The translations under genes were made by a program, and so were the position numbers. This document shows, piece after piece, positions 3,926 to 61,005 of a DNA stretch of 64,000 bases (position 1 is the stretch's first letter; each line of letters begins with the position of its first letter). The notes below the pieces were generated by a model. It saw only the letters and a program-made list of their open reading frames with translations, was not told where the DNA came from and did not search any database. This stretch comes from Nitrosopumilaceae archaeon (lineage in GTDB: Archaea > Thermoproteota > Nitrososphaeria > Nitrososphaerales > Nitrosopumilaceae), in assembly GCA_965200155.1 (NCBI GenBank), contig CBDATR010000024.1:256001-320000 (forward strand). Direction: 5' to 3'.

Positions 3926-4861
3926 CAATAGTACGAAAAGTAAGTCCGCTCAGGATCCGGCGTACAGTAGCTGACTATTTCATTGCACAAGCCATATGGT
4001 AAAGAGAATAACAGAGGAATCAAGACAAAAGAGGCGTTGCCACAACCAACATAGCTCAAGACCTGAAACAAGACACGTACGAAGATTGTGAACCAGAGAA
4101 CGGGAACGACTCGAGTAAAGATGGGCAGGCCCATGATACCAATCACCGCCACCCAGATACGAATGGTAACTGAAACATACGGCAAGGATCCCGCCGGAGT
4201 AGTACGTATTGCAAAGAGGCTTTAGACAGAATTACAATATATCGCGCAGTATATCGCATAATGAAAAAGAACGGTACGGCAGGATCATCACCTGCAAAGT
4301 CAGAGTGGGTACGCTATGAGCGTAAATATTCCAATGCAATGTGGCACTGGCATGTAATGAAAGATGAGCGCTTCAGGGGACTGAATCTCATAGATGATGC
4401 ATCCAGGTGCATCGTCGGGGCGGCACTATTCTAGCATACAACCTCAGAGAACGCCACTCTACTGAGATTGGCAATGAAACGATTCGGTGCCCCTGCATCT
4501 TGGATAACGGCGCGTGTTTCGTAGGACAATAAAAGGGAAAAAAGAACTGGAAACCCACTATTCTAGGAAGAACTGCTGGATCAAGACATCATACTAATCA
4601 ATTCCAGGCCATACCACCCGCAGACAAATGGCAAACTGGAGCGCTTCCATGGAATGATTGAGGACGAGATTTGGCATTATGACAGTCTCCGGGATTATGT
4701 TGACTACTACAATGAGAGAAGATTGCACTTCTCACTGGATATAGATAACGGCGAAACACCACTCCAGGAATAAAAAGGCGACCCAGACAATTAGGACAAA
4801 TGATGAAAAATGGATGGAGCGAGATACCAATGACTAGCGGACCGACTTTTCATATATTACA
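3923..4861 (+). mobile_element. IS481-family remnant (integrase core pseudogene), copy A
   Basis: TGT...ACA ends with imperfect ~26-bp TIR (gaaaagt..gtccgct); translated fragments DDASR, DNGA, SRPYHPQTNGKLERFH and YYNERRLH. Confidence 0.85.
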
Positions 4862-5269: not shown

Positions 5270-5361
5270 GTATGAGTTCACGTCTTCCGGAATCTTGTAC
5301 ACAAATCACATTAACTGTCGCGATCAGTTGTGCGTAAATTTAGACACAGGTGAACTCATAC
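5270..5361 (+). mobile_element. 92-bp MITE copy 2
   Basis: 12-bp TIR; TSD tggattag. Confidence 0.95.
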
Positions 5362-5548
5362 TGGATTAGTGCCAAATGGAAAAAGAAGCGCGGATTCATC
5401 AGTGCTCGCGGACTAGGAGAGCATATGCATTTACGGTTACCGGCGAGTGGGTTGGGAATACGCGCATGTTAATCAATGCAGTACTGGGCTCGTATGCAGA
5501 AGAGCCACAACTGGACAGGAAGCACACCCGGGAATTGGAAAGTTCCGG

Positions 5549-19938: not shown

Positions 19939-20045
19939 GAGCCCGCAGGGAATTCTGCTGGACCCAATCGCACCCAGGTAACCATTCTTGGAATGATGCG
20001 CCAATACAGGAGCCCGCAGGGAATTCTGCTGGACCCAATCGCACC
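19939..20045. repeat. Exact 36-bp direct repeat flanking a 35-bp unique insert
   Basis: gagcccgcagggaattctgctggacccaatcgcacc at 19939-19974 and 20010-20045. Confidence 0.95.
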
Positions 20046-39132: not shown

Positions 39133-39224
39133 GTATGAGTTCACGTCTTCCGGAATCTTGTGCACAAATCACATTAACTGTCGCGATCAGTTGTGCGTAA
39201 ATTTAGACACAGGTGAACTCATAC
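39133..39224 (+). mobile_element. 92-bp MITE copy 6
   Basis: TSD caccaggg; empty site present in IS5 copy 2. Confidence 0.96.
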
Positions 39225-39350
39225 CACCAGGGAGCAGTTAGTCACAGAGTACTACCGGCTACGCACCAGGTCCGAGGCCGAAGTAACAAACCTGCGTGGA
39301 AAAAATGACCGTTTGTGTGGAAAAGTTGACAGTCTGCACGCCAAACTTGA

Positions 39351-39442
39351 GTATGAGTTCACCTGTGTCTAAATTTACGCATAACTGATCGCGACAGTTA
39401 ATGTGATTTGTGTATAAGATTCCGGAAGACGTGAACTCATAC
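39351..39442 (-). mobile_element. 92-bp MITE copy 7
   Basis: TSD aaacttga; empty site present in IS5 copy 2. Confidence 0.96.
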
Positions 39443-41265
39443 AAACTTGAAGCTCAAACAAAGAATTCCCTTGTTTCAAATCTTGATGACATCATAGAAC
39501 GCAAGGATCAGCTTCATTCCCTGACCGGATGCACTCCGGAAGAGTTCAAATGGATACTAACCAGATTCACAGAATACGTAGAGTCCCTGGAAGGCGATGA
39601 TGCACGGCGATTCTTAGAACTTACAAATGATCGCGGCCATGTGAACAAATTTCCGGTCAGGCATGTACTCTTAGTTACACTGATACGCCTGCGCTGCAAC
39701 ACAAAGCAGGAGCTTCTTGCTGCAATACTCAAGATAAACCAGTCAAACATATGCCGTTACATCCAGTTTACAAAGCAGGGACTGATCAAGATACTCCCAA
39801 CGGCCGATACCGTTGCAAAAGCAATATCGCAAATCAAGTCAGCATCGGACTTTAAGGAAATTGTTCCAGGCCGAGCCGGAGGGGAGATAAAGACTGACGG
39901 GACACATGTACGTGTACAACGTCCTGAAAAAAATCAGGAGGCAATGTACTCTGGTAAACAAAAAACCCACACGTATAACGTACAGATAACATCAAACAAG
40001 AAAAGACTGATAATTCACGTAAGTGGAGTATATGAGGGAAAAAGACACGATTATGGTATATTCAAGAATGATATTCCCCTCGGTGGCAAATGGGGCAAGT
40101 CCCTAAAAGAATCAACCACGCTGCCATCTGAGAAGATAACAGTAATAGCAGATGCAGGATACCAGGGTATGAAAGACTTCCTACCCGGCGCAAAGGTCAT
40201 GATTCCATACAGGGGTAGGGAATCACTCACTAAAACTGAAAGGAAATACAACCAATATGTATCAAAAAGGCGCATATTAATCGAGAATGTAATTCGAATG
40301 CTAAAGGTATATCGTAGATTAAGTCAGGTATATGATGGCAGTCGTGAGGAATTCCGGGAAGATCTACTCGTAGTATCCGGGTTGCATAATTTACACATTA
40401 TGCACAAGCATACCAGGTACAAGAAATTCTTGAAAAATATCTGTCCATAATTTCCGTGTTATTATAATTCGAATATTACTCATCAGAAAATCCACTAAAT
40501 TAATGGGTTTTGTGGTAACCATTTAGCTCACTCATGATATACGTCATCAAGATCCGGTCACCCCACTACACGACATTTGTAATCACGGCATACGTTAGTG
40601 CTGGCAGGTGCCATTCACATTGTTCATGCTTGACTGATTGTGTGCCATAAAATACACCCCAGTTTGAAGCAACATGGGCTATTCCTGTCAATCATGCGCA
40701 TAAGGTCTAATATTGCGCTTAAATACCAAGTTTGAAATAGAATCTAATGAGTAGGCGTACAACACATAATAAATAGGAGTAGGAAAACCGGCTGCTTCGG
40801 GACACCCTTGCGTCCACCAAGAGGAATCTTGCAGATGCGATGAAACGCGTGAAGGTATTGTAAGATGATATGTCAAATATTATAGAAGAACTGAGAAAAA
40901 TCATACAGGATTTTGGATATATTCGTCAATATGTGGCTAAATTAGAAGAAAAACACAGCAAAGCTGCGGTAGCCGCGGCCCGGCTCAAATATTATGAGAA
41001 TGTCAACTCCCCGCCATCACTCCAGTACAGGGCAGACAAGAGGAAGAGCGGAAAGCTAAGGAAGGGGAGCAGACAAGTACTGGATCCATAAGAAAGGCTG
41101 GCAGTCAGGCGAGACACAAGGGCGTCTCCCGTAAACGTAACCCCGATAGAATTACGCATCACATGAGGGCGATAACCTGGTATGCGACTGCAGTAAAATA
41201 ATGACAGTAATTGGTATAAAATCGCGATACGTGACGCATTTAATACCGGCCAGGACAGGATATTC

Positions 41266-46251: not shown

Positions 46252-46343
46252 GTGTGAGTTCGCTTGCGTTTACATTAATGCATAGCGGATCGTAGCAATC
46301 AGTATGGTTTTTGAGCACTGGGATTGGAGATGCGAATTCATAC
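46252..46343 (-). mobile_element. Ancient degenerate copy of the 92-bp MITE
   Basis: gtgtgagttcgc...gcgaattcatac, same 92-bp length, internal similarity by eye, no TSD. Confidence 0.65.
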
Positions 46344-46845
46344 AATCGGGATGTGTGGTTGGTGCTTAAGTGATCGTACTGCCTAAACGGTTTAACTGGT
46401 ACGTGAACTCAAGTTTGTTGTATAATCAAGTTACGTTGAAAAATTGCACTGGTGACAATAGTTTGTACATTTCCATCAGTGACAGTCATTAGATCCAAGT
46501 CAATAGTACGAAAAGTAAGTCCGCTTAGGATCCGGCGTACAGTAGTTCAGATTGCACAAGCCATATGGTAAAGAGAATAACAGAGGAATCAAGACAAAAG
46601 AGGCGTTGCCACAACCAACATAGCTCAAGACCCGAAACAAGACACGTACGAAGATTGTGAACCAGAGAACGGGAACTACTCGAGTAAAGATGGGCAGGCC
46701 CATGATACCAATCACCGCCACCCAGATACGAATGGTAACTGAATCATACAGCAAGGATCCCGCCGGAGTAGTACGTATTGCAAAGAGGCTTAGACATGAT
46801 ACATATCGCGCAGTATATCGCATAATGAAAAAGAACGGTACGGCA

Positions 46846-46955
46846 GGCTCATCACCTGCAAAGTCAGAGTGGGTACGCTATGCTGACTTGCTTGGTGCAC
46901 GATTCCATGCCGCTGCTCGGCTCATCACCTGTAAAGTCAGAGTGGGTACGCTATG
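46846..46955. repeat. 37-bp direct repeat (1 mismatch) flanking a 36-bp unique insert
   Basis: ggctcatcacctgYaaagtcagagtgggtacgctatg at 46846-46882 and 46919-46955; single copy in the paralogue at 4282-4318. Confidence 0.95.
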
Positions 46956-47280
46956 AGCGTAAATATTCCAATGTGGCACGTAGACTGGCATGTCATGAAA
47001 GATGAGCGCTTCAAGGGACTGAATCTCATAGATGATGCATCCAGGTGTATAGTCGGAGCGGCACTATTTGAGCATGCAACCTGAGAACGCCACTCTATTA
47101 CTGAGACTGGTAATGAAACGATTCGGCGACCCTGCATCTCGGATAACGGCGCGTGTTTCGTAGGACAATAAAAGGGCAAAAAGAACTGGAAACCCACTAT
47201 TCTAGGAAGAACTGCTGGATCAAGACATCATACTAATCAATTCCAGACCATGCCACCCGCAGACAAATGGCAAACTGGAG

Positions 47281-47379
47281 GTATGAGTTCACCTGTGTCT
47301 AAATTTACGCACAACTGATCGCGACAGTTAAAGAACCGGTTCTTTTGTGCACAAGATTCCGGAAGACGTGAACTCATAC
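47281..47379 (-). mobile_element. 99-bp MITE variant C, copy 9
   Basis: TSD aactggag; empty site in IS481 copy A near 4634; internal palindrome aaagaaccggttcttt. Confidence 0.95.
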
Positions 47380-47659
47380 AACTGGAGCGCTTCCACAGAA
47401 CGATTGAGGACGAGATATGACATCATGACAGTCTCCGGGATTATGTTGACTACTACAATGAGAGAAGATTGCACTTCTCACTGGATAGATAACGGCGAAA
47501 CACCACTCCAGGAATAAAAAGGCGACCCAGACAATTAGGGCAAATGATGCAAAATGGATGGAGCGGGATGCCAATGACTAGCGGACCGACTTTTCATACA
47601 TTACAACTCCCACATTGGGGCCAAAGTTGTTAAATGGTATTTCCGGTCTCTATATCATA

Positions 47660-48244
47660 ATGAACCGCACGTGTAGTATGAAACGCACAACCTCGGAGAC
47701 AGATGTTGGGGTATCGGTGAACCTGGATGGGCTGGGCAAGGCCGACGTTGAAACAGGCAACAAATTCATAAATCACCTGATAGCGTCCTTCTCTCACCAT
47801 TCCATGATGGATGTACATGTGCGCGCCAGCTCACTGGACGGTATACTTCACCACTTGGTGGAGGATACCGCGATTACCCTGGGAAAGGCCATCTGTGATG
47901 CCCTGGGGAGCAGGCATGGCGTGGCGCGGTTCGGGCACACATCCATACCCATGGATGAGGCCCTGGTGGAGGTATCTGTAGATTTGATAAGACGCCCATA
48001 TGGCATGGTGAATCTGTCCCTAAAGGGGGACTCCGTGGAGAATGTGCCCCATGAGGATATAACCCACTTCTTTGCCTCACTAATACAGAATATGGAGGCA
48101 TGCGTGCATGTGCGTGTCATATACGGCGATAACGATCACCACAAATCCGAGGCGGCAATAAAGGCACTGGCAGTATCGATGCGGCAGGCAATATCCCCTG
48201 ACAGTAAGTATTCGGGAGCTCCCAGTACCAAGGGGACCATGTAA
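47660..48244 (+). CDS. hisB: Imidazoleglycerol-phosphate dehydratase
   Basis: R.TSETD, HHLVED, PMDEAL, NDHHKSEA and PSTKG. Confidence 0.95.
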   Translation: MNRTCSMKRTTSETDVGVSVNLDGLGKADVETGNKFINHLIASFSHHSMMDVHVRASSLDGILHHLVEDTAITLGKAICDALGSRHGVARFGHTSIPMDEALVEVSVDLIRRPYGMVNLSLKGDSVENVPHEDITHFFASLIQNMEACVHVRVIYGDNDHHKSEAAIKALAVSMRQAISPDSKYSGAPSTKGTM

Positions 48245-59574: not shown

Positions 59575-59766
59575 CACAATCAGTCAAGCATGAACAATGT
59601 GAATGGCACCTGCCAGCACTAACGTATGCCGTGATTACAAATGTCGTGTAGTGGGGTGACCGGATCTTGATGACGTATATCATGAGTGAGCTAAATGGTT
59701 ACCACAAAACCCATTAATTTAGTGGATTTTCTGATGAGTAATATTCGAATTATAATAACACGGAAA

Positions 59767-61005
59767 TTATGGACAGATATTTTTCAAGAATTTCTTGTAC
59801 CTGGTATGCTTGTGCATAATGTGTAAATTATGCAACCCGGATACTACGAGTAGATCTTCCCGGAATTCCTCACGACTGCCATCATATACCTGACTTAATC
59901 TACGATATACCTTTAGCATTCGAATTACATTCTCGATTAATATGCGCCTTTTTGATACATATTGGTTGTATTTCCTTTCAGTTTTAGTGAGTGATTCCCT
60001 ACCCCTGTATGGAATCATGACCTTTGCGCCGGGTAGGAAGTCTTTCATACCCTGGTATCCTGCATCTGCTATTACTGTTATCTTCTCAGATGGCAGCGTG
60101 GTTGATTCTTTTAGGGACTTGCCCCATTTGCCACCGAGGGGAATATCATTCTTGAATATACCATAATCGTGTCTTTTTCCCTCATATACTCCACTTACGT
60201 GAATTATCAGTCTTTTCTTGTTTGATGTTATCTGTACGTTATACGTGTGGGTTTTTTGTTTACCAGAGTACATTGCCTCCTGATTTTTTTCAGGACGTTG
60301 TACACGTACATGTGTCCCGTCAGTCTTTATCTCCCCTCCGGCTCGGCCTGGAACAATTTCCTTAAAGTCCGATGCTGACTTGATTTGCGATATTGCTTTT
60401 GCAACGGTATCGGCCGTTGGGAGTATCTTGATCAGTCCCTGCTTTGTAAACTGGATGTAACGGCATATGTTTGACTGGTTTATCTTGAGTATTGCAGCAA
60501 GAAGCTCCTGCTTTGTGTTGCAGCGCAGGCGTATCAGTGTAACTAAGAGTACATGCCTGACCGGAAATTTGTTCACATGGCCGCGATCATTTGTAAGTTC
60601 TAAGAATCGCCGTGCATCATCGCCTTCCAGGGACTCTACGTATTCTGTGAATCTGGTTAGTATCCATTTGAACTCTTCCGGAGTGCATCCGGTCAGGGAA
60701 TGAAGCTGATCCTTGCGTTCTATGATGTCATCAAGATTTGAAACAAGGGAATTCTTTGTTTGAGCTTCAAGTTTGGCGTGCAGGCTGTCATTTTTCCCAC
60801 GTAAACTGTCAACTTTTCCACGCAGGTTTGTTACTTCGGCCTCAGACTCGGTGCGTAGCCGGTAGTACTCTGTGACTAACTGCTCCCTGGTGAGTTCTTC
60901 TGCTTTTAGCATACCTGGTATTACAAAATTAGGTCTTAACTTTTCTGTTTCACACGAGTCTGTGGGAAAACCCATGATACTAGGTCGATTGTTCGTATCT
61001 AACAA
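59767..61005 (-). CDS. IS5-family transposase (coiled coil + HTH_Tnp_4 + DDE_Tnp_4)
   Basis: TDGTH, YSGK.K.H, HD, ADAGYQG and R..IE catalytic pattern; start codon uncertain. Confidence 0.9.
   Translation of the reverse strand: MLDTNNRPSIMGFPTDSCETEKLRPNFVIPGMLKAEELTREQLVTEYYRLRTESEAEVTNLRGKVDSLRGKNDSLHAKLEAQTKNSLVSNLDDIIERKDQLHSLTGCTPEEFKWILTRFTEYVESLEGDDARRFLELTNDRGHVNKFPVRHVLLVTLIRLRCNTKQELLAAILKINQSNICRYIQFTKQGLIKILPTADTVAKAISQIKSASDFKEIVPGRAGGEIKTDGTHVRVQRPEKNQEAMYSGKQKTHTYNVQITSNKKRLIIHVSGVYEGKRHDYGIFKNDIPLGGKWGKSLKESTTLPSEKITVIADAGYQGMKDFLPGAKVMIPYRGRESLTKTERKYNQYVSKRRILIENVIRMLKVYRRLSQVYDGSREEFREDLLVVSGLHNLHIMHKHTRYKKFLKNICP

Follow-up and report, generated by a model that had tools for sequence, protein, structure and literature searches.

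Positions 46846-46955 of the window, by which is meant the whole analysed stretch of 64,000 nt (C24:256001-320000) of a sponge-associated Nitrosopumilaceae genome, very probably represent the scar left by the resident type I-G Cas4/Cas1-Cas2 through full-site integration of a spacer at an off-target position. The site carries a 36-nt insert between two copies of a 37-nt sequence, and its empty alleles are present in the same genome. The geometry of the unit is that of the resident CRISPR array and recurs, with a different insert each time, at some 63 events outside the array; in at least 22 of these the insert is derived from the host. The genome is a metagenome-assembled genome (MAG) of 2.38 Mb in 51 contigs with a completeness of 87.64%, and its assignment to the Nitrosopumilaceae agrees with the relatives found for a neighbouring hisB.

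The IS481-like site and its alleles

The unit lies in a degraded IS481-like element (copy B), and a second copy within the window (copy A) provides an empty allele. The features referred to are these:

46500-47605, + strand: IS481-like copy B, degraded, with short ORFs only and with a MITE of ~100 nt inside it at 47281-47379
46846-46882, no strand assigned: pseudo-repeat 1 of the duplicated 37-nt target, a sequence found in other IS copies (6 exact places)
46883-46918, no strand assigned: ectopic spacer (36-nt insert), unique in the assembly, with no near match in the genome or array and no exact match in the contig sets
46919-46955, no strand assigned: pseudo-repeat 2 of the target, with one C>T at 46932, a variant which is unique
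3931-4861, + strand: IS481-like copy A, the empty allele, with a single 37-mer at 4282-4318
19939-20045 (C24:275939), no strand assigned: second isolated unit in the window ("event 1"), with a 36-nt repeat, a 35-nt insert and a 36-nt repeat, the repeats being identical; one of the 63 events

The two direct repeats of the unit (GGCTCATCACCTGC...) are 37 nt each with a single mismatch between them (C at 46859, T at 46932), and with the 36-nt insert they give a period of 73. The repeat is maximal at 37 nt, as the bases immediately beyond it mismatch on both sides. In copy A the single 37-mer, which has one further difference (A for C at base 3), is followed directly by the sequence found after repeat 2 of copy B. 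The preliminary description of the site, which had the 37-mer once in copy A and twice in copy B around 36 bp missing from A, agrees with these coordinates and alleles. Since the form of repeat 1 is found at six places in the genome, other IS copies included, and that of repeat 2 only here, the C>T change at 46932 is later than the duplication; the unit is not brand new, as one of its repeats has gained this change since. The insert occurs once in the genome, and none of its 16-mers is found again in the assembly.

To census the alleles, copy A (window 4222-4378) was used as a blastn query, which returned 94 HSPs. Of these, 84 run contiguously through the site (72 without an indel, 9 with a 5-6-nt deletion and 3 with a 9-nt insertion), two are the halves of the filled allele and the remaining eight are fragments from four further places (three split loci, two partial C34 copies); the three split loci are read as probable further insertions. 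The 46883-46918 segment is therefore missing from 84 of the 85 copies which span the site, and with one filled allele against 84 empty ones and a unique insert, the insertion is taken to be the derived state. When window 46301-47700 is the query, all copies break at query positions 582/619 with a 37-nt overlap.

In the same search, query positions 200-1305 correspond to dozens of copies of the element and positions 981-1079 to hundreds of copies of the MITE. All 46 near-full-length IS481-like copies are degraded, the longest ORF being 278 aa, and the best family for the element is NF033577 (IS481, E-value 1.6e-41), with a score of 142.7 bits that lies below the curated cut-off of 224; the Pfam rve domain is present. 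The MITE-like element of ~100 nt has terminal inverted repeats and hundreds of copies (e.g., at window 47281-47379, 515-617, 5270-5372 and 39133-39235), and it interrupts many of the IS copies. The window also contains a perfect inverted repeat of 1201 nt (39442-40642 and 59575-60775, 18.9 kb apart), which presumably represents a further mobile element in two copies.

Searches for the origin of the insert, a step suggested in the preliminary description, yielded no source. There is no near match in the genome itself or in its array, and an exact scan of viral, genome and metagenome contigs, which a diverged source would escape, gave no exact match. As no source was found, no PAM can be assigned to this insert. 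The comparison of the target with the leader-repeat junction of the organism, also suggested there, was likewise negative, with no likeness to the leader end and with 12/36 in-register identity of target 46846-46882 to the CRISPR repeat, which is the background level. The insert of the second unit of the window (19939-20045) matches host DNA at C35:35834 in 34 of its 35 bases.

Ten sequencing runs, sponge metagenomes among them, contain part of the stretch, and contigs of four runs were placed on window 46300-47700. The unique flanks have a depth of ~90x in two runs; in two low-depth runs the contig ends at 46882 and goes on as the empty allele, possibly from any other IS copy. As the element is so highly repeated, the placed contigs neither confirm nor refute the two junctions.

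The resident type I-G system and the genome-wide units

A single Cas1 match was found in the assembly. It is a Cas4g/Cas1g fusion of 549 aa (C9:68770-70419), scoring 710.7 bits with NF049935 (cut-off 560) over profile positions 1-546, and it is followed by cas2 (C9:70569-70844), which codes for a protein of 91 aa. Downstream of cas2 are a leader of ~166 nt and an array extending from C9:71011 to about 92087, and the presence beyond the array of a Cas3-extension protein, Cas3g, Csb2 and Csb1/Cas7g identifies the locus as type I-G. Every column which is invariant across eight aligned relatives is unchanged in Cas4/Cas1, and the Cas1-Cas2 module is apparently intact, as judged from its sequence. 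The best identity among Cas4/Cas1 relatives in genome contigs is 51%, too distant to be informative on this species, and there is no near-identical genome among the 30 relatives.

The array has 288 spacers between 289 repeats of 36 nt, of which 287 are identical. The spacers are 34-40 nt long, chiefly 36 nt (85), 37 nt (101) and 38 nt (63), with 16 of 35 nt and 15 of 39 nt. Its periods are 72 in 85 cases, 73 in 101 (the mode) and 74 in 63. The 37-nt duplication in copy B is thus close to the 36-nt array repeat, the 36-nt insert falls inside the spacer range and the period of 73 equals the modal period of the array.

Outside the array, the genome was scanned with exact-match and mismatch-tolerant searches (periods 40-130), and direct repeats that were isolated, 33-41 nt long and 30-42 nt apart were kept. 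There are 67 such repeat-insert-repeat units (68 with slightly different bounds). The duplication is 36 nt in 20 of them, 37 nt in 31 and 38 nt in 6; the insert is 35 nt in 19, 36 nt in 16 and 37 nt in 15. The periods are 71 (4 units), 72 (29), 73 (18), 74 (6) and 75 (6), with four units at all others, and because 63/67 fall at periods 71-75 the units are not due to chance. The repeats are identical in 48/67 units and have one mismatch in 15/67. Removal of one tandem repeat (C40) and of paralogous copies of the same event left 63 distinct inserts, at ~50 distinct target sites (of at least 36 nt). For 23/63 events there are contiguous empty paralogues elsewhere, and six of the 63 are in the IS481-like family at three sites, two of which were struck independently in different copies. 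The preliminary description had read the copy B unit as a target-duplicating insertion at a non-CRISPR site with spacer-acquisition geometry, and the resident type I-G module, its array and the ~63 recurrences bear this out.

The events are concentrated beside the cas-array locus: the 10-kb upstream flank of the array holds five where 0.27 are expected (P 8.7e-6), the downstream flank of equal length none. The period is divisible by 3 in 32/63 ectopic events versus 102/288 in the array (p 0.031), and 18/32 of the in-frame events versus 9/31 of the others lie within open frames of 100 codons or more; this in-frame bias is suggestive only. Some in-frame events keep long ORFs open, examples being frames of 599 aa and 503 aa.

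Two further genomes served as controls. The relative G061 belongs to the same family, is complete (1,858,698 bp) and has a type I-G fusion and an array of 135 repeats with a 36-nt repeat. It contains 23 isolated units at periods 69-74, 75-bp protein repeats having been filtered out; one is of low complexity, leaving ~22, and host sources were found for four units. The congener G003, which has no Cas1 match, showed no unit of CRISPR geometry in the 800 kb scanned of about 2.5 Mb, the only repeats of that size class there being coding repeats with a 75-bp period. Both controls have a G+C content of ~62-63% versus 47% in the studied genome, and many coding repeats with a 75-bp period (25-residue repeat proteins) which mimic CRISPR periodicity.

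A number of other observations concern the CRISPR locus and its surroundings. Exactly between cas4/cas1 and cas2 (C9:70400-70590) there are three pseudo-repeats of 37-40 nt and two inserts (34 and 37 nt), both of which match host DNA. Both the stop codon of cas4/cas1 and the likely ATG of cas2 fall inside this pseudo-repeat, so that its duplication has left the two genes whole, though ~148 nt further apart. An orphan CRISPR repeat at C43:128228 (minus strand) is 33/36 identical to the array repeat, has a shortened leader end before it and no spacer, and adjoins an IS481-like copy near the contig end. Beyond the cas genes (C9:100753-105803) are genes matching the anti-phage-associated DUF1156 and DUF499 models, with an IS5-like transposase between csb1 and these genes. 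The DUF499 part consists of two ORFs of ~410 aa compared to a profile of 1025 positions, and this gene is probably broken. Elsewhere in the assembly, ~20 contigs of 2-11 kb (e.g., C15, C16, C28 and C44) have a G+C content of 35-41% versus 45-51% in the large contigs, and may come from another organism or element in the bin.

Insert sources, target preference and growth

Exact-seed copies elsewhere in the host assembly, paralogues of the event being excluded, were identified for 22/63 ectopic inserts, and a few further inserts match the host with 1-2 mismatches. In the array, none of the 288 spacers matches the genome outside the array, and four match other array spacers only; the contrast between 22/63 and 0/288 is highly significant (Fisher p ~1e-18). 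None of 68 ectopic inserts queried matches an array spacer. It may be that host-derived spacers expressed from the real array would be lethal or purged, and that ectopic ones would yield no crRNA and could so persist. On the appropriate side of the source, TTN is present in 9/22 cases where 4.5 are expected (P 0.019), a weak enrichment. Contig C10 (540 kb, 23% of the assembly) holds 13/22 of the host sources, spread from 28 kb to 479 kb (binomial p 2.5e-4); a hot region linked to replication, or a separate replicon, could lie behind this.

For target preference, each target, and likewise each random genomic window, was turned to the orientation giving its highest in-register identity with the CRISPR repeat. 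The mean identity is 13.04/36 for the targets (50 distinct sites) versus 11.40 for the null (z 5.4), with an excess among the targets at T3, C5, C11, C12 and C26 and with T27 depleted. As a set, the targets weakly resemble the CRISPR repeat in register. They show no leader-likeness (3.98 versus 3.73 of 15), and in the relative G061 their repeat-likeness is not significant (z 1.7, n=18).

One target has been used repeatedly. It is a hot spot of 36 nt in a transposase gene, which we take to be IS66-like from its motifs, and it is found at 66 loci (e.g., C24:500845, C10:6462 and C24:460667). The 36-nt sequence is present once at 53 of the 66 loci, twice at six, three times at six and four times at one. 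Clustering gives eight spacer types, of which s2 looks by eye like s5 minus 6 nt, and some spacer sets are common to several copies of the element. In the orientation which best resembles the CRISPR repeat, the newer spacer is at the 5′ end in every informative case, and the hot spot looks like polarised growth of transposon-borne proto-arrays.

The alleles, the lengths, the recurrence, the association with the resident system and the nature of the inserts are shown by the sequence; for the way in which the copy B unit would have arisen, we infer the identity of the enzyme, its chemistry and a dependence on Cas1. The complex, loaded with a prespacer of ~36 bp, would have attacked both strands of a non-CRISPR site inside an IS481-like copy that was already decaying. 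The two transesterifications would have been staggered by the ruler distance that normally spans the 36-nt CRISPR repeat, and gap filling would have left the 36-37-bp target copied on both sides of the insert. The preliminary description gave the target duplication as 37 bp, and 37 nt does stand as the length of the maximal repeat. The figure calls for one refinement: because the array repeat is 36 nt, the true stagger at this unit may be 36 nt plus one base which matches by chance. For the genome as a whole the stagger probably varies between 36 and 37 nt instead of being fixed at 36, since duplications of 37 nt outnumber those of 36 nt (31 versus 20) and chance extension predicts the reverse. 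With no leader, and with repeats unlike the CRISPR repeat, the unit probably makes no crRNA and is neutral.

The main alternative is an origin independent of Cas1-Cas2, be it by an integrase of small inserts, by a casposase-like Cas1 absent from the assembly or by templated break repair with duplications of ~36 bp. The dependence on Cas1 is an interpretation, the PAM and repeat-likeness signals are weak and a second integrase is possible because the assembly is only 87.6% complete. However, the lengths of duplication and insert both fit the resident array, the events cluster beside the cas-array locus, only one Cas1 was found, and units are present in the type I-G relative and absent from 800 kb of the congener lacking Cas1; such an origin is accordingly considered very unlikely. 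Casposons produce duplications of ~14-15 bp and carry genes. It is also very unlikely that the unit is a working mini-CRISPR array, transcribed and processed, and not a neutral scar. The IS66-like hot spot did grow to three or four repeats by polarised addition, as true arrays do, but neither the hairpin nor the 3′ ATTGAAGG end of the CRISPR repeat is found in the pseudo-repeats, nothing resembling a leader is present, the unit is in a pseudogenised IS copy, and many of the inserts match the host perfectly, which would mean self-targeting if they were used.

An artefact of assembly or binning, in which a chimeric read join mimics a tandem structure, has to be considered with a repeat-rich MAG of 51 contigs whose junctions at this site were left unverified by the placed contigs. 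The two repeats nevertheless differ by one base, a difference which the preliminary description had already counted against an artefact and which was seen here, and the insert is non-repetitive. Moreover, ~63 units have one precise geometry in unrelated sequences, the single-contig relative has the same class of unit, and assemblers have no reason to make 36-nt inserts out of host DNA from other contigs, all of which makes an artefact most improbable. Least credible of all is the reverse order, with the repeat-insert-repeat form as the ancestor and the single-copy state as its deletion product. Recombination of the 37-nt direct repeats would indeed remove 73 bp cleanly, and the preliminary description had named intact IS481 relatives natively carrying the segment, with copy A as a deletion, as the observation that would speak against an insertion. 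The comparison of IS481 copies contradicts this, as 84 contiguous single-copy alleles stand against one filled allele and the insert does not recur in the genome; for 22 further events located in repeated elements there are empty paralogues as well, and each event has its own insert. Integration by the resident Cas4/Cas1-Cas2 remains by far the preferred explanation.

Other candidates were rejected also. A canonical CRISPR array does not fit the 12/36 identity to the repeat and the targets without leader-likeness. Insertion of a transposable element or MITE with target-site duplication does not fit a unique insert and 63 events each having a different one, and tandem duplication by slippage does not fit a 36-nt segment which is absent from the 84 empty copies and matches nothing nearby.

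Relation to known systems and significance

Off-target integration by Cas1-Cas2 is already known as a mechanism, and it is for the scale of the natural record that the literature search gave no precedent. Off-target units termed "neo-CRISPR" have been reported in Escherichia coli whose type I-E Cas1-Cas2 was overproduced (Nivala, Shipman & Church 2018, Nat Microbiol, as cited in 10.1101/148544, PMC7054753), and the citing preprint refers to natural evidence in two other species as "circumstantial". Like those described there, the units of the present genome each have an insert the size of a spacer, placed in the chromosome away from CRISPR, and a duplicated target which makes of them a two-repeat proto-array. 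Unlike the overproduction in E. coli, the present events are natural, archaeal, associated with a type I-G fusion, fixed (~63 of them) and mostly recent; in addition, the host supplied at least 22/63 of the inserts, and growth to 3-4 repeats has taken place at some sites.

Off-target integration has also been described in vitro for Pyrococcus furiosus Cas1-Cas2, where paired attacks fall one repeat-length apart, are leader-independent and occur at sites sharing positional bases with the repeat (PMC6698737). The sites here are similar in their repeat-length spacing, their positional bases in common with the repeat and their independence of a leader. The P. furiosus work is in vitro, on plasmids and with a 30-bp spacing, whereas the present events are in vivo, fixed in the genome and spaced by 36-37 bp, and the conserved positions (T3, C5, C11, C12 and C26) are a statistical signal which the relative G061 did not reproduce.

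The Geobacter sulfurreducens type I-U/I-G system is comparable in its gene order, with a fused Cas4/Cas1, cas2 and then leader and array, and the study of it reports spacers mostly of 36 bp and a PAM of TTN (PMC6547450). That study reports integration into the array only, and plasmid is preferred over chromosome as a source, whereas here TTN is found at 9/22 sources and the sources are chromosomal. In Streptococcus thermophilus, ectopic spacer acquisition has been reported inside CRISPR arrays (PMC7999890, PMC5338259), which is similar in that integration takes place away from the leader-proximal repeat; those events are reported to use genuine array repeats, whereas the target here is unrelated DNA. 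A full-text search, with most subscription journals outside its scope, turned up no natural genome reported to carry dozens of ectopic integrations, nor any such integration in Thaumarchaeota.

Off-target integration is a proposed route to new CRISPR arrays and a hidden cost of adaptive immunity, for which direct evidence in the literature accessible to the search has so far been limited to E. coli over-expression and in-vitro experiments. The present genome offers dozens of natural, datable events, many of them with before and after alleles. In it, the integrase ruler works on DNA unrelated to the repeat, events concentrate beside the cas-array locus, host-derived spacers are common where autoimmunity is impossible and absent from the real array, and a pseudo-repeat, once formed, is a preferred and polarised target. 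There is a practical side also, as annotation may mistake ectopic units for very small CRISPR arrays or for tandem repeats, and the units disrupt genes or lengthen them by 24 codons.

For the family, the wider reading is one to which we would give even chances. The type I-G adaptation module of sponge-associated Nitrosopumilaceae would, on this reading, act as a chronic genome-wide integrase, responsible for at least 60 fixed ectopic spacers in one genome and ~22 in a relative. Such spacers would constitute a record of Cas4/Cas1-Cas2 capture free of selection by interference, drawn largely from host DNA and with one 540-kb contig over-sampled. The same activity would seed proto-CRISPR arrays in transposons, which would grow at one end and be spread by transposition. 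If this is true, the birth of CRISPR arrays would have been caught in nature.
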